Shown: positions 488-27,192 of the stretch, one piece after another
Layout of the letters: each line of letters begins with the position of its first letter
How positions within the stretch are numbered: position 1 is the first letter of the stretch
DNA from: Candidatus Hermodarchaeota archaeon
GTDB taxonomy: Archaea > Asgardarchaeota > Hermodarchaeia > Hermodarchaeales > Hermodarchaeaceae
Length of the DNA: 27,192 nt
Assembly (NCBI GenBank): GCA_016839805.1
Contig: JAEOTO010000017.1
Coordinates: forward strand, 1 to 27,192
Reading direction: 5' to 3'
Notes under the pieces: generated by a model
The model's database searches: none
Told to the model about the DNA's origin: nothing
The model's input: the letters and a program-made list of their open reading frames with translations, nothing else
Made by a program: the position numbers and the translations under genes

Positions 488-613
488 CTACCTGCGCCAC
501 GTCTTCACGCGATCTCGTTCTTCCCGACTCTTCGCCTGGAACTAGATCCGCAGTGGTTTCTCACACCTCCCATCGAAATACGCCAAAATCATCCGATTCG
601 TTTACTTGAAACA
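488..613 (-). pseudogene. Displaced hydrogenase 3'-end copy A
   Basis: Translates CFK*TNRMILAYFDGRCEKPLRI*FQAKSREERDRVKTWRR*, colinear over 42 codons with 5471-5596 (CFSCTDRIILSYPDGKKEEKPWAWFQQKSREERDRVKAWRR*). Two internal stops. Confidence 0.9.
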
Positions 614-655: not shown

Positions 656-925
656 ATGCTCCGATTACTCTCTTCTAGCTTGGAGGCGAAAGGCATCAAA
701 AACCGCGTCCAAAACCATAATAGAAAAGAGCAATATCGCCGCTGGAAGGCATACATCGAAGCAATGCGTGGACCCCTCAGCAGCATACCAGCTGATCACC
801 AACAAATTGATGCAATGATTGTGAGAAAACGTGCTGAAGCACGATTCTTTGAGGGGCGCAATCAACATTCTGTGAATCGGTCCGCATTTCATCTGACTAA
901 AATGCTTAAACGCCAAACCGGCTAA
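656..925 (+). CDS. Small hypothetical protein or gene remnant (cargo between copies A and B)
   Basis: 89-aa ATG ORF filling most of the interval between two tail copies; no recognisable motif. Confidence 0.3.
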   Translation: MLRLLSSSLEAKGIKNRVQNHNRKEQYRRWKAYIEAMRGPLSSIPADHQQIDAMIVRKRAEARFFEGRNQHSVNRSAFHLTKMLKRQTG

Positions 926-1003: not shown

Positions 1004-1135
1004 TTGGAGTCGTCACGTGCTTGCCTGCCCACATGCTTCTCGACTCCTTGCTCAAAGCACGCCCACGGCTTTACTTCTTTCTTCCCATCCGGGTATGCCA
1101 AAATGATCCGATCCGTACATGAAAAACACGGTATC
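1004..1135 (-). pseudogene. Displaced hydrogenase 3'-end copy B
   Basis: PCFSCTDRIILAYPDGKKEVKPWA matches the resident gene at 22/24 aa (58/72 nt), then CFEQ-(1-nt deletion)-SREACGQAST*RL. Confidence 0.92.
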
Positions 1136-1211: not shown

Positions 1212-1922
1212 TTATTGGATCATATGCCCCCAATTTGCAGTCGTCACGTGAAGCACATGGTGGGTCGCGTTCAAGACGACATATTGGTAAATTCTACTAC
1301 CTACCAAATCACCATATTTGAGCATCATATGGACCATGAACGCATCTCCATAGGTTTCAGTATACGGAGGATATCTCGAAATCTCGTACCCTGTTGTAAT
1401 CCATCGTGCCGATCGCATTGCATCTGAATTGACCTTCCAGGGAAAGGAAATCGTCATCGACTGGTTTGAAGCCACAATCGCACTACCAAAATTTACCTGA
1501 ACCGTGAGGTTGGAAATCCAATACGCCGACGCATTATACTCGTATTCCGCAGAAATCCATGGCTTCGTTTTGGTGATGTTTTCCAATCGCGAGACCAAGT
1601 ATTCGAGGGTCTCATTGTTGATAAAATTAAGCCAGGTTTCAAATCTACTGGGTGTCATAACATCACCATGCGACCAATAGGGTGTCCACTCCAAAATCTC
1701 GCTATAATTCGCTATCTCCGCGCTATGCATCGCATCCCGGGCAGGCCCCGCTGTTGGAGACCGATGAAACACCATCGAATGTGTGGGAAGTGGTTGTCCA
1801 AAATACCAGAAATATGACCCCACCATGAGGGCAATAAAAAAAACTAAAGGCACGGCAATAAGAACTCGCCTATCGAAACGACGCGATTTCACCTTTGATG
1901 TCATCATCACACAGCATAACAT
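1212..1922 (-). CDS. Hypothetical membrane-anchored protein (single N-terminal TM; start probably ATG ~1907)
   Basis: 236-aa ORF with a basic stretch (KSRRFDRR), a hydrophobic segment (VLIAVPLVFFIALMVGSYFWYF) and a soluble domain with several N-x-S/T sequons. Confidence 0.7.
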   Translation of the reverse strand: MLCCVMMTSKVKSRRFDRRVLIAVPLVFFIALMVGSYFWYFGQPLPTHSMVFHRSPTAGPARDAMHSAEIANYSEILEWTPYWSHGDVMTPSRFETWLNFINNETLEYLVSRLENITKTKPWISAEYEYNASAYWISNLTVQVNFGSAIVASNQSMTISFPWKVNSDAMRSARWITTGYEISRYPPYTETYGDAFMVHMMLKYGDLVGSRIYQYVVLNATHHVLHVTTANWGHMIQ

Positions 1923-2099: not shown

Positions 2100-2456
2100 A
2101 TGATGCATTATCAGGTAGGCGGTTGGATGCTTCTCTGCTCGATGATCCAACCGCCACCATTCATTGACGACTTTGAATTGACCGCTTTGATGTATAACTT
2201 CCTACTTGGATTCTCCATTATTCTCGTCATCGCCCTCACCATCATTGTGGGGTGGCTTCTCAAACGAATATATCCTTCACCGAAACTCACTGGTCGAGAT
2301 TACGCCGCACTAACCGCGTTTATCGGCATTGTATTTTTCGCGTGTGCCCCCTACTGCACACCCCTTGCCAGCCATTCCCCCCTCGTTGCATATCTTGCCG
2401 CAGTCTTTGGATGCTGGTACCTCGCATGCCGATCTCCATGGTGGAAAAAACGCTAA
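2100..2456 (+). CDS. Small hypothetical membrane protein (about 3 TM)
   Basis: 118-aa ORF with three hydrophobic segments and a basic C-terminus (WWKKR). Exact start uncertain. Confidence 0.65.
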   Translation: MMHYQVGGWMLLCSMIQPPPFIDDFELTALMYNFLLGFSIILVIALTIIVGWLLKRIYPSPKLTGRDYAALTAFIGIVFFACAPYCTPLASHSPLVAYLAAVFGCWYLACRSPWWKKR

Positions 2457-2518: not shown

Positions 2519-2634
2519 TTACCCACGCCACATTTTTCAGCTTCACAGGCTTCCCGACTTTGCTTCTCAAACCAAGCCCACGGCTTCTCCTCTTTCGAGT
2601 CATCAGGATAAGCCAGGATAATCCGATCCACACA
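2519..2634 (-). pseudogene. Displaced hydrogenase 3'-end copy C
   Basis: CVDRIILAYPDDSKEEKPWAWFEKQSREACE-(1-nt deletion)-KMWRG* aligns with the resident CTDRIILSYPDGKKEEKPWAWFQQKSREERDRVKAWRR*. Confidence 0.9.
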
Positions 2635-2728
2635 ATTTCTGGTCAAATCCTCTTCAACTTAACAGCTTCATTTATTATGCTAACTGGAGATCAAAGAAAC
2701 TCTAAGAGAATTCTTCGAGAGAAAAGAA

Positions 2729-3154
2729 CTACTCATCCTCTTTAAAATCGAGTGAGACTGAATTAATACAGTAGCGTAACCCCGTCTTATCTCTCGGTCC
2801 ATCATCAAACACATGACCAAGATGCCCACCACAGTTCTTACACAGAACTTCTATTCGTCGCATAGCATGAGAGAGATCGAGTTTCTCTTCAATTTTGTCT
2901 TTATCTAGGGCATCATAAAAACTCGGCCAACCACAACCAGAATCGAATTTTGCATCAGATGAAAAGAGTTCCACACCACAACCCGCACACTTGTAGGTAC
3001 CCTTTTCTTTATGATTCCAATACTTACCAGTGAACGGACGTTCTGTCCCCTTCTCTCGCAACACAACATACTCTCGTTTAGAGAGTTTCTTCTTCCATTC
3101 GTCTTCGGTTAATTCTCCTGCAATCTTCATATCAATCACTTCGTTTATTGCCAC
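2729..3154 (-). CDS. msrB: Peptide-methionine (R)-S-oxide reductase MsrB, Zn-binding
   Basis: GTERPF, CAGC and CKNC zinc pairs, KFDSGCGWPSF, HLGHVFDDGP, RYCINS motifs. Confidence 0.97.
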   Translation of the reverse strand: MAINEVIDMKIAGELTEDEWKKKLSKREYVVLREKGTERPFTGKYWNHKEKGTYKCAGCGVELFSSDAKFDSGCGWPSFYDALDKDKIEEKLDLSHAMRRIEVLCKNCGGHLGHVFDDGPRDKTGLRYCINSVSLDFKEDE

Positions 3155-3246: not shown

Positions 3247-3309
3247 TTATCAGCACCACACTTTTGCTCTTTCACGCTCTCCACGGCTCTTCTGCTGGAA
3301 CCACGCCCC
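3247..3309 (-). pseudogene. Displaced hydrogenase 3'-end copy D (short)
   Basis: AWFQQKSRGERERAKVWC** versus resident AWFQQKSREERDRVKAWRR*. cggctcttctgctggaacca is 19/20 identical to the resident gene. Terminal TGG TGC TGA TAA is explicable as W-R-R-stop with two C>T changes. Confidence 0.85.
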
Positions 3310-3343
3310 CAAACGCACCTCACGCCTTACACACCGTAATCCA

Positions 3344-3380
3344 TTTAAAGAAACCAAAAACCGGACGCCATGGTGAGGTG
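3344..3380 (+). promoter_or_regulatory. Putative TATA box and Shine-Dalgarno for the 692-aa ORF
   Basis: TTTAAA at 3344-3349 and GGTGAGGTG at 3372-3380, 11 nt before ATG 3392. Confidence 0.45.
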
Positions 3381-3391
3381 TCCCCCACAAT

Positions 3392-5470
3392 ATGGTCCCC
3401 ACCACCCCATCTGAGGAGTATAAAACTGCTACTACGAACCCTCCTACTGAAAATCACATGCCCTCCACCACAGCCACTCTGTTATCGACCCAATTTCTCC
3501 TGAAGACAGGCAAACCCATTAAAAAATGGACCCGCCTCCGCCACGATCTCGCCACCACGCCTGAAGCCGAACACCTTCTCGATAACTACGGTCACACCGC
3601 CTGGCAAACCCTCGAACACAACCTCCACCGACACCCCTACCTCCAAACCCGCACCACCTTCGACCACGCCTACATCAACACCCTCTGGCACCGCACCCTC
3701 ACCGCCGCCCGCCACGACAGACACCTCACAAACAAAACCTACAAAGAACTCGAAACCATCACCGGCATCCCTGCCGGACGCATCCGCGACTGGCATCTTG
3801 GCGAAAAAGAACCCCACCTCGAACGCACCCTCCGCATCCACGAAAATGCACGCCAACAATGGGAGAACGAACTTCAAAACGAAGCCAAAGACCACATCCT
3901 CGACCCCAGCCTCGTCTACACCACCTTCAAACCCCTCCTCGACCACCCCGACCACCAAACCCCCCAAGCCCTCACCACCGCCATCGAAACCCTCTACCAC
4001 CACGGCGACACCACCCGACTCACCATCGTCGAACTCAAACCCTACCACAAAACCGGACCCCAACCCCTCCGCACCATCGCCCACACCATCACCAAACACC
4101 AACCCCAGATTACCAACCTCCTCAACCAACACCTCAACCTCGCTGAAACGCAAGAGGAGCTCTGCTTCGCTATTGACCACGACATCCTCTACATTTGGCG
4201 CAAAACCACACACCCCGACCACTGGCTCAACACCTACAAAGACGAACTCCTCTACCTCAAACCCAAAATCAAAGAAGACCTCATCACCACCGCCCAACGC
4301 CACCTCAACGTCAACACCCAACAACTCGGACAACTCCTCACACAACTCACCGACCACAAAGGCCACCGCACCTACAACCCCCGCGCCACCCCCTACGAAC
4401 TCACCCACTCCAGCCCCAGCCTCCACGGCAACACCCTCCACCTCCTCCTCGACGCCACCAACCAATCCTTTGATGCAATTAAAACCCATATCATCCAAAT
4501 CGGACGCATCGTCAACCACGAAAAAGGCGGCGGCATCCAAAACCCTCAATTCCCTATAGGCGAAAAACTCGACGAAATCCGTGCACAGCTTATAGCCATC
4601 GCCCTCAGCGACTGCCATATCAACAAAAACACCCACGTCCTCACCTACCATGAAAAAGACAAAGATCGAATTGAATACGTACGAACACTCTTCCGAAAAC
4701 TTGGTGAAACTGACTACAAAACTGAAGAACTTAAAGGAAAACGCAAGCGCCTCACCATCACAGCCGTAGTAGGTCGGCTCCTTGAAAACTGGGGCGTCCC
4801 CAAAGGCGACAAACACCTTCACCCCAACTTCCGGTTACCGCAGAGTATACGCGACGGAACAAATGCCACTAAATGCGCCTACCTTCAAGAAATAATCCCT
4901 GAAGAGGGTTACTTTGTCAAACGCGCACATCATCAATTCGGAATAAAGAGAGCTCAAATTCTTACATCTGGCGACAAAGGAGAAAATCATGGATTTTTAC
5001 AAAAAGTTACTCCAGATGAAAAGGCGTTTATTCAAAAATATGGGCGAGAACAAATCTTTCAAATTAGAGATGATAAACCTCGACGGGTATTCATACTAGT
5101 CTGGGGGAAATTAAAGCATTTGGCAAAAAGAACAAAAGACAACCATGAAGTACAAATCGCCCAACACCTAGTAAAAACGATTCAAGAAAATAAATGCAAA
5201 TTACTGGAGGATGAAATTCAATTAGCATCCAGTTTAGGAATCAGCATGTATAAACTAATTAAGCAAATTCAATTTTATGAAAGTGGACGAGTATCTACCA
5301 TTTGGGAAGCCTACACCCGAACAAAAAAAGACACCTACAAATGGTCACAACTCGCTTTGCCTTCAACAGGAATTAAACGAAAAGCCGTTGAAAAATGGAT
5401 TGCCCAATATCAATTAGAATCTCCTAAACATAAAAAGAACAAAAAACGTGAATTCTCCAAACTTCTGTGA
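3392..5470 (+). CDS. Free-standing HTH + double LAGLIDADG (DOD)-like homing endonuclease domain protein
   Basis: HTH-like TYKELETITGIPAGRIRDW. LAGLIDADG-like helices QLIAIALSDCHI (~4586-4620) and KCAYLQEIIPEEGYF (~4871-4915), with the intervening LLENWGVPKGDK and RLPQSI and a block-H-like LLEDEIQLASSLGI. No intein splicing motifs seen. Confidence 0.7.
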   Translation: MVPTTPSEEYKTATTNPPTENHMPSTTATLLSTQFLLKTGKPIKKWTRLRHDLATTPEAEHLLDNYGHTAWQTLEHNLHRHPYLQTRTTFDHAYINTLWHRTLTAARHDRHLTNKTYKELETITGIPAGRIRDWHLGEKEPHLERTLRIHENARQQWENELQNEAKDHILDPSLVYTTFKPLLDHPDHQTPQALTTAIETLYHHGDTTRLTIVELKPYHKTGPQPLRTIAHTITKHQPQITNLLNQHLNLAETQEELCFAIDHDILYIWRKTTHPDHWLNTYKDELLYLKPKIKEDLITTAQRHLNVNTQQLGQLLTQLTDHKGHRTYNPRATPYELTHSSPSLHGNTLHLLLDATNQSFDAIKTHIIQIGRIVNHEKGGGIQNPQFPIGEKLDEIRAQLIAIALSDCHINKNTHVLTYHEKDKDRIEYVRTLFRKLGETDYKTEELKGKRKRLTITAVVGRLLENWGVPKGDKHLHPNFRLPQSIRDGTNATKCAYLQEIIPEEGYFVKRAHHQFGIKRAQILTSGDKGENHGFLQKVTPDEKAFIQKYGREQIFQIRDDKPRRVFILVWGKLKHLAKRTKDNHEVQIAQHLVKTIQENKCKLLEDEIQLASSLGISMYKLIKQIQFYESGRVSTIWEAYTRTKKDTYKWSQLALPSTGIKRKAVEKWIAQYQLESPKHKKNKKREFSKLL

Positions 5471-6676
5471 CTAACGGCGCCAAGCTTTAACTCGATCTCG
5501 TTCTTCCCGGCTCTTTTGCTGGAACCAGGCCCATGGCTTCTCCTCTTTCTTCCCATCAGGGTAGGAAAGAATGATGCGATCGGTGCATGAAAAACAAGGA
5601 TCAATCGAAGCTAACGCGATGGGGACGTCGGCGATTTTGCCGCCTTTGAGGATTTCGATGACGCCTGGGATGTTGCCGAGGGTGGGGGCGCGGGCTTTGT
5701 GGCGTTCGGGCTTATCTGTTCCATTGGAGACGACGTAGTGGACGACTTCGCCGCGTGGGGCTTCGAAGGTGCTGAGGGCTTTGCCGGGTGGGACGCGGCG
5801 GGGGGCGCGGATGCTGATGTCGCCTGGGGGGAGGTTGTTGAGCCAGTGGATGCAGCAATTGGTGGCATCGATGGTTTCGAGGATGCGGACGACGACGCGA
5901 CCGGCGACGTCGCAGAGGTCGGAGGTTCGGGTTTCCCAGTGTTTGCCTTCGCTTTCCTTGTAGGGGGTGCGTGGTTGGGTGTTGCGGACATCCCAGTGAA
6001 TATCAGATGCTCGGGCTGTGGGACCGGTGGTACAGAGAGCTTTCCCGATCTCTGTTTCGAGAATGCCGACGCCTAAGGCGCGATCAAGAATGGTTTGTTC
6101 CTTTAAAATCAGGTTCAGGTAATGTTGCATCCGGTCACGGATTTTTTCCATCCGTTCAACCATGGATGGTACTTGGGGTTTGGTGACATCGTGGCGGACG
6201 CCACCAATGATGTTGTTGGCGTAATTGACCCGATTTCCACAGATCTCTTCGATGACATCCATGGCGTACTCGCGGTCCCGCCATGTATAATGGAAGAGCG
6301 TATCCCAGCCTATCTCATGACCAGCAACGCCTAGCCAGAGAATGTGGCTGTGAATTCGGTTTAACTCATTCATGATGCCCCGAATGTACAAACCACGTGG
6401 CGGCACATCCAAATCGAGAATCTCTTCTACAGCCTGGACATAACACGTCGTGTGGGATTGTGAGCAGATGCCACAGATGCGTTCCGCTAAGTAGACGTTT
6501 TGGCTATAACTTCGGCTTTCAAATGCTTTTTCAATTCCGCGATGGACGTATCCAATTCGGGCATCGACATCGACGACGATTTCTCCGTCAACGGTTATAG
6601 TGAAATTTTCGGGTTCTTTAAGAGCGGGGTGTTGGGGCCCGATGGGGATGGTCATGGTCATGGGTTGTTTTGCCAT
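5471..6676 (-). CDS. Group 4 [NiFe]-hydrogenase large subunit (Mbh/Ech-like, NuoD superfamily)
   Basis: GPQHP, GYVHRGIEK, L1 motif ERICGICSQSH, EAPRGE, RAPT, L2 motif DPCFSCTDR followed by a C-terminal extension. Confidence 0.95.
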   Translation of the reverse strand: MAKQPMTMTIPIGPQHPALKEPENFTITVDGEIVVDVDARIGYVHRGIEKAFESRSYSQNVYLAERICGICSQSHTTCYVQAVEEILDLDVPPRGLYIRGIMNELNRIHSHILWLGVAGHEIGWDTLFHYTWRDREYAMDVIEEICGNRVNYANNIIGGVRHDVTKPQVPSMVERMEKIRDRMQHYLNLILKEQTILDRALGVGILETEIGKALCTTGPTARASDIHWDVRNTQPRTPYKESEGKHWETRTSDLCDVAGRVVVRILETIDATNCCIHWLNNLPPGDISIRAPRRVPPGKALSTFEAPRGEVVHYVVSNGTDKPERHKARAPTLGNIPGVIEILKGGKIADVPIALASIDPCFSCTDRIILSYPDGKKEEKPWAWFQQKSREERDRVKAWRR

Positions 6677-6710: not shown

Positions 6711-6761
6711 AGGTTCATGCCTATTCTTCCTTAAGAAATTAACCGTCAAACTACGATATAC

Positions 6762-6799
6762 CTATCAGGTCGATCCATTTTCTGTCAGGTCGATGCATT
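6762..6799. repeat. Two-copy direct repeat with 20-bp period in the divergent promoter region
   Basis: ctatcaggtcgatccatt / ctgtcaggtcgatgcatt, 16/18 identical. Confidence 0.75.
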
Positions 6800-6908: not shown

Positions 6909-8288
6909 TTGGAGGGACGATTTTTGGAGGAAAGAAAATTGCAATTTGGCAATAGAAGAAGAACGATACTGGCTGCGATCTCAATCTGCATCATGGCAAG
7001 TCTGCTACTCGCTGGTACGGCGGTCATGGCTCGGCCTCATCATGGCGTGTTCATTGTAGCACCCTCAGGTGATGTGTCAGGAGTCACGGATACGACCAAC
7101 ATACAGCAGGCACTTGACAACGCCATTGCGGCAGGAGGAGGAAGCACAGTGTTACTTGAGGAAGGTAACTTCTACCTCTGTGAAACCATAGTGGGAGTCA
7201 ACTTCGACGGAACATTCAAGGGTGCTGGAGCTGGACTGACGGTTCTGCACAGTGTGGAGAACTTCCCTGCTCAAGACACGGGCAACCTTGGCGTAGCAAA
7301 TCCGAGAATGCTGATGTTCTACCAGGATGAGTACTCGACTAGCACTCGTAGACATCCCTACAAGATACTGCTGCGTGACTTCTCCTTGAAAGTGGACCAA
7401 CCAACTGAGGAGTGGTATTTTGGTTACTTCAGGGCCATGAACGTGCTTGACCTCTATGGCAAGATCGATGGTCAATGGACTGAGGATGTGTCCTACTTCG
7501 ATGCCACCGTGAAGAATGTGGAGTTCTTGGGTGATGCTGGTGACGAATATGGCTACTTCGGCCTTAGCATTCAGAATGCTCTACTCATTCAAGGTGAGTG
7601 GGGCGCGGACTTTGCGAATGAGAGAATCAGCGGAAGGTATGTCGTTGAAGGTTGTCACTTCCAATACAGCGTCGGTTCAAGCGTCATGTTTGGATCATTC
7701 GGAGATTCACACATTCGAATAGTCCGAAACACCTACCAGGACACTCTGATCGGTCCAGAGCTCTATGACCTCGACAACTCACGTGCCGAGGTGGCATTCA
7801 ACGAGGTTGCCGGAGTTGGCTGGTACGGCACGTATGTGTGCAATGGCCTCTACGCGACCAGTCTTGAACCAAGTCGGGTTCTCATCCATCACAACCACAT
7901 TGAGTGTGCACCAGGTGCAAATGGCATCTGGCTTGACGACTCCCTTGCCGTACCGGGAGAGGTAGAGGGAGTCTCAGTCTTTGCGCATCACAACGAGATT
8001 GTCCTGAATGATCCATATAGTTGGGGTGTCTTCGGTTATGGTGCTCAGAAAGTGTGGCTAGTCCACAACACCATCCGTGGAAGTGGAGAAGCGGGAATCG
8101 TGACAGGAATCTGGGGTGATGCGGTAGAAGGGTGGAAGCTGGTCCTGAATGACCTTTCCGACTTCGACGCAGAGGTAGCAGACATCTGGTTGGGTCAGGG
8201 AACATCGCATTGTTGGCTAATCCATCGCGGACCCAGTGATTCAGTCCTCGACGAGGGCACTGACAACTGGCTGCTCCTCCTCCCGTAG
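6909..8288 (+). CDS. Secreted right-handed parallel beta-helix (pectin-lyase-like) repeat protein
   Basis: Signal-peptide-like RRRTILAAISICIMASLLLAG; DTTNIQQALDNA...TVLLEEGNFY cap; repeated (I/V)xxNxI motifs (IVRNTY, VAFNEV, IHHNHI, AHHNEI, LVHNTI). Start uncertain. Confidence 0.8.
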   Translation: MEGRFLEERKLQFGNRRRTILAAISICIMASLLLAGTAVMARPHHGVFIVAPSGDVSGVTDTTNIQQALDNAIAAGGGSTVLLEEGNFYLCETIVGVNFDGTFKGAGAGLTVLHSVENFPAQDTGNLGVANPRMLMFYQDEYSTSTRRHPYKILLRDFSLKVDQPTEEWYFGYFRAMNVLDLYGKIDGQWTEDVSYFDATVKNVEFLGDAGDEYGYFGLSIQNALLIQGEWGADFANERISGRYVVEGCHFQYSVGSSVMFGSFGDSHIRIVRNTYQDTLIGPELYDLDNSRAEVAFNEVAGVGWYGTYVCNGLYATSLEPSRVLIHHNHIECAPGANGIWLDDSLAVPGEVEGVSVFAHHNEIVLNDPYSWGVFGYGAQKVWLVHNTIRGSGEAGIVTGIWGDAVEGWKLVLNDLSDFDAEVADIWLGQGTSHCWLIHRGPSDSVLDEGTDNWLLLLP

Positions 8289-8534
8289 ATCGAGCGAGTC
8301 GTACGAGATTGGACAACATAAACGGTCGGGGTCGAACCCTTTCTAAGGTGGGATGTCCCGACCAAACCTCTCTTTTTCCTCTTCCACAACTAGAAAAACT
8401 TCTAGCCGATACGCTCAGGCTAGAATACACCTTCCTTCCCACAACCCCTTTCCTATTGGAGATTCTAGGTTTAACTTGAGAATCCCTTAAGAGATTTTGG
8501 TTTTGCCAACCTTTAACGGGGTTAACTCGTGGTT

Positions 8535-10010
8535 CTATTTGTGCTGTTTTGCCAGCCTTTTGACTTCAGTAATGTCAAGCTTTAATCCTTTTGCGACGCG
8601 GGTCCCATATTCTGGGTGAACTCTATAGAAGATAGCGGTTTGACGGAGTTGAATCTCTTTTTTGGCGTTTCCGAGGTGATCGACGATATTGCCGATGAGA
8701 TGATCTCGGTCACTGTCAGTCATTACCTTTTCGTAGAGGGCACGAGGCTGGATGAAGTCATCGTTGGGGTGACTATACGCGTGGCGACCAACTTTTCCGG
8801 TCACTTCGAATTGTGGTTCTGCTGTGGTTGGATCGGGTTCAGGTCCGCCCATACTGTTTGGCCAGTAGTTGGGATGACCACTAGTTTCTTCCCGTCGCAT
8901 GAATCCGTCACGTTGGTAGTTGTGAACTGGACCTTTGGGTGCGTTGATGGGGAGTTGTTCATAGTTAGCTCCTAGACGATATCGGTGAGCGTCATGGTAG
9001 GAGAATATGCGTCCTTGCAGCATCTTGTCAGGTGATGCAGCGATACCAGGTACGAAGTTACCGGGGCAGAATGCTGATTGCTCCACATCCGCGAAATAAT
9101 TGGTGGGGTTGCGGTTGAGGACCATCCGTCCTAGGGGTTTGACAGGGTAGTCACCGTGTGGCCAGACTTTGGTGATGTCAAAGATGTTGAAGCGGTATTT
9201 TTCGGCATCTTCCGGAGGCATTATTTGTACTTCGACATTCCAGGCGGGGTAGTCACCCCGTTCGATAGCATCGTATAGGTCGCGAGTCGCGTGGTCAGGG
9301 TCCTTGCCTTTCATGATTTCGGCTTCTTGTCTTGTGAAGTTTTGAATGCGTTGGGCGGTTTTGAAGTGGTATTTGACCCACCAGTATTCGCCTTGGTCGT
9401 TGTACCATTTGTAGGTGTGTCCGCTGTAGCCGTTCATGTGCCGATGCGTTTTGGGTGTGCCTCTATCGGAAAAGAGGATGGTGACTTGGTGGATGGATTC
9501 GGGGGTGAGGGAAAGGAAATCCCAGAACATATCTGGGTCTTTGGTGTTTGTGGCGGGATTGCGTTTCTGAGTATGGATGAAATCGGGGAATTTCATAGGG
9601 TCACGAATGAAGAAGACGGGTGTGTTGTTCATCACCAGGTCATAGTTGCCTTCTTCTGTGTAGATCTTTACGGCAAAGCCGCGAGGATCTCTTTCAGCAT
9701 CGGCTGATCCCTTCTCGCCCCCGACAGTTGAGAATCGAACAAAAAGATCGGTTTTCTTGCCAACCTTTGACAGGAATTTTGCTTTTGTGTATTTCGAGAG
9801 GTCATGGGTGACTTCAAGGTACCCAAAAGCTCCCGCACCTTTAGCATGGACGACTCTTTCAGGGATTCGTTCGCGGTTGAAATGGGCAAGTTTATGGACA
9901 AGGTGGACATCCTGTAGAAGAACTGGACCAGGATCACCGGCCGTTACACTATTTTGGTCATCATCCACGGGAGAGCCAAAACTGGTTGTATACCTTTTTT
10001 TCTTCGCCAA
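8535..10010 (-). CDS. katA: Monofunctional heme catalase, small-subunit type
   Basis: [42 protein letters not shown] heme-ligand motif; TTG start preceded by GGAG. Confidence 0.97.
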
Positions 10011-26268: not shown

Positions 26269-27192
26269 TTATTTACGACGGGCTAATTTGACTTTATCGT
26301 CTTTGAGTTCAAGTAGTCTTGCACGTACTAATTCTTGTACACGACGTCGCGCTTCGAACACTCCAACTCCCAATATTTTACTGAGTTCTTCAAGAGTACG
26401 TTGTCCCGTCTCTCGAACAAGAAGGTAAATTCGATATTTTGAATCCTTTTCAAGGGCTTTTTTCAGCTGCTCTAATTCTACTTCTAAATCATTAACGCGT
26501 CGACGGAGCACAGTAGTGTCCTGTACTGCTTCTCGTTGAACAATTCCTACAGTTCGGAGTTGGTCTGCCTCAGTCTGTGCATCCTGGGCTATATCCTTCT
26601 TTGTGAGTATGTCTTTTTGTAACGCGACAAGCTCCTCATCCCGCTTCTTAACTACTCCACGTAATTTGCCAATTTGCTCCGCCATTGCCTCCAATTGACC
26701 GAGGAGCTGTTCTTCTCGAGACTTGGAAAGTTTCTCCTGTTTTTTCAGCTCCTTTTCAAGGGTAGAAACTTGATTCCCGGATTCAGTGAGTTTTTTATCC
26801 AATTCTTTGATTTGCTTGGTCCTTTGTTTGATTTCGTCTTCGAGTTGAGGGATTTTTTCTTGAAATTGTGCGTTATCCGTGTTAGCTTGGTTAAGTTCTT
26901 CTGTTAACGAGGCTATTTGATTCTCGAATTCATTCTTCTTGCTGTTAATCTCATCAACCTGGTTGATAAGCTCGGATACTTGTTTAGATAATTCTTGGTT
27001 CTTTTGTTTCGATTGCTCAATTTCGGTATTCAGCTGGCTAATCTTAGAACGGAGTTCCGTTACTATATCCTCTTCTTCAACTGCTTCTGCCATGGATACT
27101 TCTGGTTCCTCTTCGATGGGTTCTTCTGTGGTGTCTTCTGGTTCCTCTTCGATGGGTTCTTCTGTGGTGTCTTCTGGTTCCTCTTCGATGGG
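26269..27192 (-). CDS. 5'-truncated protein: acidic tandem repeats, long coiled coil, C-terminal winged HTH
   Basis: Frame stays open upstream of ATG 27093 to the window edge (PIEEEPEDTTEE repeats); about 200 aa of heptads; C-terminus RIYLLVRETGQRTLEELSKILGVGVFEARRRVQELVRARLLEL is wHTH-like. Confidence 0.85.
   Translation of the reverse strand, partial: PIEEEPEDTTEEPIEEEPEDTTEEPIEEEPEVSMAEAVEEEDIVTELRSKISQLNTEIEQSKQKNQELSKQVSELINQVDEINSKKNEFENQIASLTEELNQANTDNAQFQEKIPQLEDEIKQRTKQIKELDKKLTESGNQVSTLEKELKKQEKLSKSREEQLLGQLEAMAEQIGKLRGVVKKRDEELVALQKDILTKKDIAQDAQTEADQLRTVGIVQREAVQDTTVLRRRVNDLEVELEQLKKALEKDSKYRIYLLVRETGQRTLEELSKILGVGVFEARRRVQELVRARLLELKDDKVKLARRK
27099..27192 (-). repeat. Perfect 36-bp coding tandem repeat (at least 2.6 copies, runs off the window)
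   Basis: Unit ttctggttcctcttcgatgggttcttctgtggtgtc on the plus strand encodes PIEEEPEDTTEE on the minus strand. Confidence 0.95.

Follow-up and report, generated by a model that had tools for sequence, protein, structure and literature searches.

A free-standing double-LAGLIDADG gene beside an Asgard hydrogenase gene as the likely endonuclease of a 3′-end-replacing homing element

In the window analysed here, a stretch of 27,192 nucleotides from a Candidatus Hermodarchaeota archaeon, the TGA (5468–5470) of a 692-aa ORF touches the TAG (5471–5473) of a convergent hydrogenase gene, and behind the ORF the 3′ end of the hydrogenase gene occurs in four extra copies ("tails"), together with unrelated cargo genes (Table 1). 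This raises the question of what the ORF encodes and whether its product built the array. The ORF most likely encodes the endonuclease of a homing element that replaces the 3′ end of its host gene, in a mode like that of the yeast WHO elements and the fungal mitochondrial mORFs, with a protein of a separate family; cleavage, resistance of the resident allele, and the repair routes are inferred.

Table 1. Features of the nuclease gene, the array, and the host gene (window positions).
Feature	Position	Strand	Remarks
Free-standing double-LAGLIDADG endonuclease gene (cleavage inferred)	3392–5470	+	692 aa; residues 1–39 disordered; from AlphaFold model and conserved residues
N-terminal region, aa 40–389	3509–4558	+	Confidently folded, without clear structural match
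LAGLIDADG domain pair, aa 390–678	4559–5425	+	D407 4610–4612, K474 4811–4813, E505 4904–4906
Candidate TATA-like promoter of nuclease gene	3334–3350	+	Inferred; conserved in four loci; directly beside short displaced tail
Displaced tail 1, short	3248–3321	-	From about W382
Cargo, msrB (SelR)	2729–3154	-	Found at other array positions in relatives
Displaced tail 2	about 2524–2637	-	From C364
Cargo, 118-aa probable membrane protein	2100–2456	+	Weak MFS match
Cargo, 236-aa ORF without family	1212–1922	-	
Displaced tail 3	1014–1131	-	From P360
Cargo, small ORF	656–925	+	Unit of small ORF and tail 4, with identical junction, common to L003
Displaced tail 4	489–613	-	From C361; internal stops
Gene end truncated by contig edge	3–350	+	Homologue also after last tail in L001
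NiFe-hydrogenase large subunit, complex-I-like (group 4 type)	5471–6676	-	401 aa; motifs L1 RICGIC, L2 DPCFSCTDR
Resident 3′ end of hydrogenase, codons 354–stop	5471–5617	-	Replaced, element-borne tail
Predicted recognition region, codons 354–367	5576–5617		Cut inferred near D359/P360, about 5602–5594
Left flank of swapped segment, codons 221–353	5618–6016	-	92% C/A at third codon positions; stops abruptly at codon 354

Fold and catalytic residues of the 692-aa protein

The frame of the ORF is uninterrupted over its whole length and includes two LAGLIDADG-like motifs, LIAIALSDCH with D407 and YLQEIIPEEG with E505. Searches of Pfam and NCBIfam gave no significant match, the only marginal one in Pfam being LAGLIDADG_3 (E 0.059), and therefore the fold assignment rests on a structure model. 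The AlphaFold model, built with 19 homologues, has a mean pLDDT of 86, and its residues from about 390 to 678 match double-LAGLIDADG nucleases, first of all PI-PfuI (Z 15.7, rmsd 2.5, 186 aligned), with further matches to I-Tsp061I (Z 15.2), WhiA (Z 14.5), and I-DmoI (Z 13.7). The fold alone is not decisive because WhiA scores nearly as high as PI-PfuI. When 68 distinct family members were aligned, D407 was kept in all 62 that cover it, position 505 was D or E in 66 of 66, and position 474 was K or R in 64 of 64. The catalytic positions D407, K474, and E505 were thereby assigned by alignment, without measured active-site geometry. Motif 2 is deviant in carrying P503, as well as E500 at a position where LAGLIDADG helices usually bear a small residue, and C408 stands in place of G in the hydrogenase-associated nuclease clade. 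The product of the ORF is a double-LAGLIDADG fold protein with both catalytic acids retained, its fold being predicted by the model and its cleavage activity inferred. The second LAGLIDADG domain (aa 500–675) is the part that differs most between alleles and travels with the hydrogenase tail; within one genus, the identity of the C-terminal nuclease domain between alleles falls to 45%.

The Hint domain is absent from the protein, structural matches to inteins being confined to their nuclease domain, and no CxxC motifs, i.e., no zinc finger, were found. The ORF stands alone and antisense to the hydrogenase gene, with no intron context and no splicing, and the host frame is unbroken; an intein or an intron-encoded nuclease is thus ruled out.

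Residues 40–390 are modelled at a pLDDT of 90, but a structural search with them against 48,161 chains revealed no clear match (best Z only 5.8). The helix-turn-helix at aa 113–137 (3728–3802) consists only of predicted helices, 117–124 and 128–135, and has no profile match; a second HTH-like bundle at about aa 290–370 is weak (Z 4). In a comparison with the Atlas, the region scored 0.86 by features only, the nearest clusters being LAGLIDADG- or HTH-associated, which can serve merely as a lead.

A preliminary description, made from sequence alone, had claimed an ORF abutting the hydrogenase stop with two acidic LAGLIDADG motifs and without intein or intron context, and all of this held: the ORF, the contact of the stops, and both motifs were confirmed, and neither a Hint domain nor an intron was found. 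Its claim of an N-terminal HTH held only in part, as a prediction. The two checks proposed there and performed here were passed: the LAGLIDADG fold is present with intact catalytic acids, and homologues are tied to tail duplications at the hydrogenase and other host genes, as described below.

Displaced tails, swapped gene ends, and other host genes

The four extra tails were detected with E values from 1e-6 to 2e-18, and none was found elsewhere in the 2.3-Mb genome; the copies are degenerate and 64–80% identical. Among the 1758 genes of this genome with ≥150 aa, orphan tail copies within 12 kb were found for only four, namely this hydrogenase gene, mvhA, an actin exon, and one probable paralogue, and both the hydrogenase gene and mvhA adjoin a member of this nuclease family. 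The actin-like exon (own genome, C32:39753-40241) has two orphan downstream copies, with no nuclease family member found there. Logan contigs of the probable source sample span the stop–stop junction and the tails, though they are not independent of the assembly; in Logan contigs from other runs, at 85% likeness, the joints were too short for use. The same layout, with a convergent nuclease gene and tails, recurs in independent assemblies. At the opposite end of the window (27071–27192), a 36-nt tandem repeat encodes an acidic low-complexity stretch in a coiled-coil protein running off the contig end.

Ten loci bear this nuclease clade, all convergent on the same hydrogenase stop with a gap of 0–133 bp, while four hydrogenase alleles lack the nuclease gene; three of these four (L062, L063, and L068) still carry arrays of displaced tails. 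The cargo varies by genome, and some units of cargo plus tail recur with the same junction at other array positions. There is one nuclease gene per array, always in the first unit and never distal, and a search for nuclease relics in the distal units found none. In L008, L015, and L102, cargo immediately follows the nuclease gene, with no detectable short tail. In L068 (1429-2352), a 292-aa membrane-type ORF occupies the nuclease position between the resident and the displaced tail, and its last residues resemble those of the L067 nuclease, which would fit a replacement of the nuclease gene by cargo.

When the displaced tails are placed in codon register across genomes, none starts upstream of P360 in D359-P-C-F-S-C364. 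Eight independent junctions fall at codons 360–362 and a few at 363–368; short tails, including all four that are nuclease-adjacent, start at about codons 376–384. A fixed cut followed by variable trimming would produce this pattern, sharp at the 5′ limit and ragged on the inner side, although the cut itself is inferred.

The resident tail has been laterally swapped, so that the host gene is chimeric and the nuclease gene mosaic. Between the window and L003, the hydrogenase body is 87% identical and the tail 62%; among L001, L003, and L015, the values are 80–81% for the body and 85–87% for the tail. Informative sites in L003 are split 24:12 in favour of its body kin up to codon 359 and 1:24 after it, i.e., in favour of the other group. 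Fisher values (6e-7 for L003, 0.003–0.015 for the window) were calculated as if linked sites were independent and have only descriptive value. The clearest case of tail swapping between lineages is L102, where the backbone genes are 85–91% identical to the L015/L065 lineage and the first 534 nt of the nuclease gene 90%, whereas the hydrogenase tail is 86% identical to that of the window and 57% to that of L015, and the last 821 nt of the nuclease gene are 80% identical to the window, with the zero-gap stop junction of the window type as well. Therefore, the tail and the nuclease 3′ half were jointly transferred between lineages, the crossover lying within the nuclease gene.

Alleles without the nuclease gene reveal the origin of the displaced tails. 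In L003, the nuclease-adjacent tail, the spacer, and the next gene are collinear with the resident tail region of nuclease-free L062 (304/360 nt); in the window, the resident tail region of nuclease-free L065 has its collinear counterpart in tail 1, the spacer, and msrB (248/332 nt). The displaced tail is the former gene end, as seen in nuclease-free alleles. No simple diagnostic recoding at the target site was found between nuclease-bearing and nuclease-free alleles, and hence resistance of the resident allele is not demonstrated.

The hydrogenase codons after R367 are presumed to encode a maturation peptide, since in group 4 hydrogenases the residues beyond this arginine are clipped off by a HycI-type protease (PMC7654741); the same genome encodes a protease of the HycI family. 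The bulk of the replaced tail lies beyond R367, and a tail swap might cost the host little, as the peptide gets removed. By the same inference, hydrogenases may be favoured hosts, their conserved L2 codons being followed by a short cleaved maturation peptide (PMC7654741).

The frequency of C/A at third positions in the hydrogenase gene is 92% in codons 221–353 and 27% in codons 354–364, the genome mean being 0.53, and nuclease codons 51–350 display a mirror-image bias, with 85–100% C/A third positions on the opposite strand. The less biased middle, comprising the tail and the C-terminal nuclease domain, is probably the mobile part. Repeated break repair in the flanks might have produced the bias, which is no more than a guess; the bias is not a general family mark because the own-genome mvhA gene shows none.

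The upstream side of the hydrogenase gene is also variable, since gene content there differs between relatives: the interval from the hydrogenase gene to lon contains a beta-helix ORF and a catalase gene (window 6909–10010), while this position is gene-free in L003 and L009 and occupied by different genes in other relatives. A possible operator is a 21-nt direct repeat upstream of the hydrogenase start, at window 6759–6799; its two copies are 20 nt apart, and a similar copy occurs at window 25168.

Members of the nuclease family are found at other host genes, too. At mvhA, two loci carry 4–6 displaced tails, the longest of which start within the DPCLSC motif and the others shortly after. The mvhA arrays beside another nuclease-family member lie in the own genome (contig C46, L010:9620-19119) and in L007:2129-13978, the own-genome nuclease copy there being devoid of the N-terminal 300 residues. 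Further members adjoin etfA, metF, and a gene for an FAD oxidase, and in all three cases a displaced tail is found on the far side of the nuclease gene. On own-genome contig C10 (L011:2143-3741), a 135-aa family remnant ends with zero gap from the etfA stop, and its intact relative in L029 is accompanied by a displaced etfA tail. In L025:8480-15071, a member is flanked by full uvrB on one side and, on the other, by a 5′ piece of uvrB that breaks off at the YYDY motif; this arrangement is a duplication of the gene head, the mirror image of tail replacement. In L086:6169-7251 and L044:2242-2526, ahcY is cut short at the GHPS motif beside the nuclease gene, while other ahcY-clade members adjoin intact ahcY.

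In several loci (L017:2576-5647, L019, L056, L082, L084, L094, L095, and L099–L101), the member directly follows a same-strand gene. These preceding genes encode 850–1060 aa, and the pair is possibly a two-gene mobile module; the L017 gene has a HerA-like (DUF87) ATPase match, and two others have no Pfam match. Still other members (L021:5879-10719; L038, L042, L059; L088, L089, L091) are located at further genes, either directly upstream of aglB or a 2-oxoacid oxidoreductase beta gene, or convergent on scpB, a cysteine desulfurase gene (with a tail copy on the same side), or probable rps19. In the distant family f31, many members have no detected neighbour duplication and many follow a gene of about 1000 aa, so that tail swapping is evidenced for the family to which the window's genome belongs and not for the whole protein family.

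A single-sequence scan of the genome contigs for the family gave nothing, and members were recovered by profile searches. The nuclease family occurs in 14 of 18 other genomes of the family to which the window's genome belongs. Beyond it, in a sample of 400 genomes of the phylum, members were detected only in the last three of 33 sampled families (48/89 genomes) and in one other genome, every listed match in those three families belonging to f31. Named homologues are labelled Hodarchaeota or Promethearchaeota, which marks the host as an Asgard archaeon. Many genomes bear several copies, some of them truncated or frameshifted. In the nuclease-domain tree, UFBoot support is 97 for a monophyletic hydrogenase clade, and the ahcY clade is supported at 99; most members group by host gene, while mvhA members appear in two places.

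Proposed mechanism and rival explanations

The fold, the catalytic residues, the linkage, the sharp tail edge, the chimerism and mosaicism, and the existence of filled and empty alleles are shown; cleavage, resident-allele resistance, the repair routes, and the meeting of two alleles in one cell are inferred. According to the model proposed, the element would consist of the hydrogenase tail (from about codon 354–360) and the convergent nuclease gene. Sensitive alleles would be cut by the nuclease near D359/P360, within the conserved L2 codons, and the left end would be repaired on an element-bearing allele, so that the gene is rebuilt with the donor tail. Three routes may be envisaged for the right end. 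In route (a), it would rejoin at the short tail beside the nuclease gene, whereby the element is inserted and the old end displaced. In route (b), it would rejoin within the 5′ half of a resident nuclease gene, so that the tail and the C-terminal specificity domain are overwritten; since the resident module is replaced in this way, nuclease genes would not stack. In route (c), supposed to be rare, the right end would be joined without homology after copying has proceeded past the nuclease gene into the donor's downstream genes, and the product would be a new cargo unit whose following tail starts at the cut. Given that no relic is found in distal units, route (c) would require repeated clean loss of the nuclease gene. 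This requirement counts against the model, as do the unusual motif 2, the lack of diagnostic recoding at the target site, the loci with cargo immediately behind the nuclease gene, and the many f31 members without a detected neighbour duplication. Nuclease loss of this kind is nevertheless part of the model. Such loss, e.g., by recombination of the resident with the short tail, would yield nuclease-free arrays open to reinvasion.

Several claims of the preliminary description may be judged against this model. A cut near DPCFSC, which is still inferred, fits the sharp tail edge at P360–F362, and the copying of a donor tail held, as evidenced by gene chimerism. One-sided invasion had to be refined: it is needed only for new cargo junctions, and in ordinary spread two-ended repair is more likely, the second arm being supplied either by the nuclease-adjacent short tail or by a resident nuclease gene through its 5′ half. 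The claim that the ORF drives the array is supported, in that the ORF is its likely driver, with cleavage inferred. The two alternatives mentioned there, WhiA-like domestication and passive cargo, both fit poorly.

According to the first of the rival explanations, the ORF is merely a passive first cargo, and the array was built by another agent, such as a distant nuclease, an integron-like recombinase using the tail as its attachment site, or homology-facilitated illegitimate recombination of foreign DNA. In its favour, arrays persist without the ORF (L062, L063, L068), and units of cargo plus tail recur at differing positions across genomes in a cassette-like manner. However, the ORF is always the first unit and never a distal one; each family clade is tied to its own host gene, in several cases with the tail of that gene duplicated; no integrase is annotated beside any array in the loci examined; and the sharp 5′ edge at one codon demands a site-specific event. 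This explanation is therefore considered unlikely.

Still less probable is the second explanation, that the nuclease built the locus formerly and is now inactive or domesticated as a WhiA-like regulator of the hydrogenase gene. The WhiA fold score near those of active nucleases (Z 14.5 versus 15.7), the large N-terminal region with HTH-like elements, and the deviant motif 2 speak for it. Against it, the catalytic acids and the lysine are invariant over about 65 members, the gene is patchily distributed with decaying copies, and its C-terminal domain moves between lineages and is as little as 45% identical among alleles of one genus. WhiA itself has lost the catalytic acids.

Artefacts of assembly or binning might be suspected, as the genome was assembled from a metagenome in 50 contigs and the array extends to the end of one, but they are all but excluded because tails with 64–80% identity are too divergent for misassembly, single contigs bridge the junctions, and independent assemblies share the layout.

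A bolder version of the homing-element reading can be put forward: these Asgard nucleases spread by swapping the tail and the C-terminal specificity module via a crossover in their own 5′ half, have been retargeted to many conserved genes, and leave as a by-product an integrase-free capture array behind essential metabolic genes, with the conserved 350-aa N-terminal region of unknown fold participating in repair. Taken as one joint claim, it is somewhat less likely than not.

Comparison with known systems and significance

WHO elements are known from Torulaspora and Lachancea yeasts, at FBA1 (PMC7282813; bioRxiv 10.64898/2026.08.13.744650). In both systems, a free-standing double-LAGLIDADG gene lies downstream of a conserved host gene whose 3′ end is replaced without splicing, displaced 3′ fragments start at about one position, the 5′ and 3′ parts of the host gene give discordant trees, the distal fragment serves as a second homology arm, by inference in the archaeal case, and arrays form. 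At the same time, the archaeal element resides on an archaeal chromosome, its host is a hydrogenase gene and not FBA1, and clades of its family occur at many host genes. Its protein lacks an intein-derived Hint domain and a C-terminal zinc finger, and has in their stead 350 N-terminal residues whose fold is unknown; the replaced part amounts to only about 42 codons, versus half the gene in WHO; and there is one nuclease gene per array, with unrelated cargo between the tails, while WHO stacks nuclease genes and pseudogenes. The crossover inside the nuclease gene is another difference, and cleavage, proven for WHO, is only inferred for the archaeal nuclease. Membership in the WHO protein family is ruled out by the lack of a Hint domain, a zinc finger, and nuclease clusters.

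Fungal mitochondrial mORFs also bring a foreign C-terminus, as described for atp6 of Allomyces macrogynus and for atp6, atp9, cox2, and nad3 of Glomus (PMC3630166). An inserted foreign C-terminus, a LAGLIDADG ORF, a displaced native C-terminus, short tails, and transfer between lineages are shared features. However, mORFs are co-transcribed or in phase with the host gene, with one displaced end described per gene, whereas the archaeal ORF is antisense, has its own candidate promoter, and is associated with up to five tails with cargo genes, on an archaeal chromosome rather than a mitochondrial one.

The archaeal LAGLIDADG nucleases PI-PfuI, I-Tsp061I, and I-DmoI, which are encoded in inteins or introns, provide the closest folds (Z 13.7–15.7) with the same catalytic positions; the 692-aa protein differs from them in the absence of an intein or intron, in two second-domain insertions, in a long N-terminal extension, and in an identity of only 13–16%. 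With WhiA (DUF199), it shares a double-LAGLIDADG fold joined to an HTH, but WhiA is vertically conserved, has no catalytic acids, and bears its HTH at the C-terminus, while the archaeal family retains the acids and is patchy and mosaic; no WhiA match to the 692-aa ORF was found in Pfam or NCBIfam. The arrays resemble integrons in having variable gene units between a repeated site, growth from one end, and units common to several genomes; unlike in integrons, what is repeated is a decaying stretch of coding sequence, the gene tail, with its start at a putative cut site. Neither a tyrosine recombinase (IntI) nor attC is annotated beside the arrays in the loci examined, as judged by annotation only and not genome-wide.

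Within the literature searched, which mostly did not include subscription papers, no archaeal or Asgard precedent for such an element was found, and the strategy has been published so far only for a few yeasts and for fungal mitochondria. WHO elements have been described as a third class of homing elements known from one yeast gene; the present locus indicates that a WHO-like strategy operates on archaeal chromosomes, with an unrelated protein architecture and at several host genes. A further implication is that Asgard lineages with 10–20% DNA divergence frequently convert one another's alleles, which bears on DNA exchange among these uncultured cells, and the locus suggests an integrase-free way of capturing and shuffling genes. 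The family would also represent a natural series of meganucleases whose target sites are predicted and whose specificity domains have been exchanged, and in vitro tests of it need no culture of the host.
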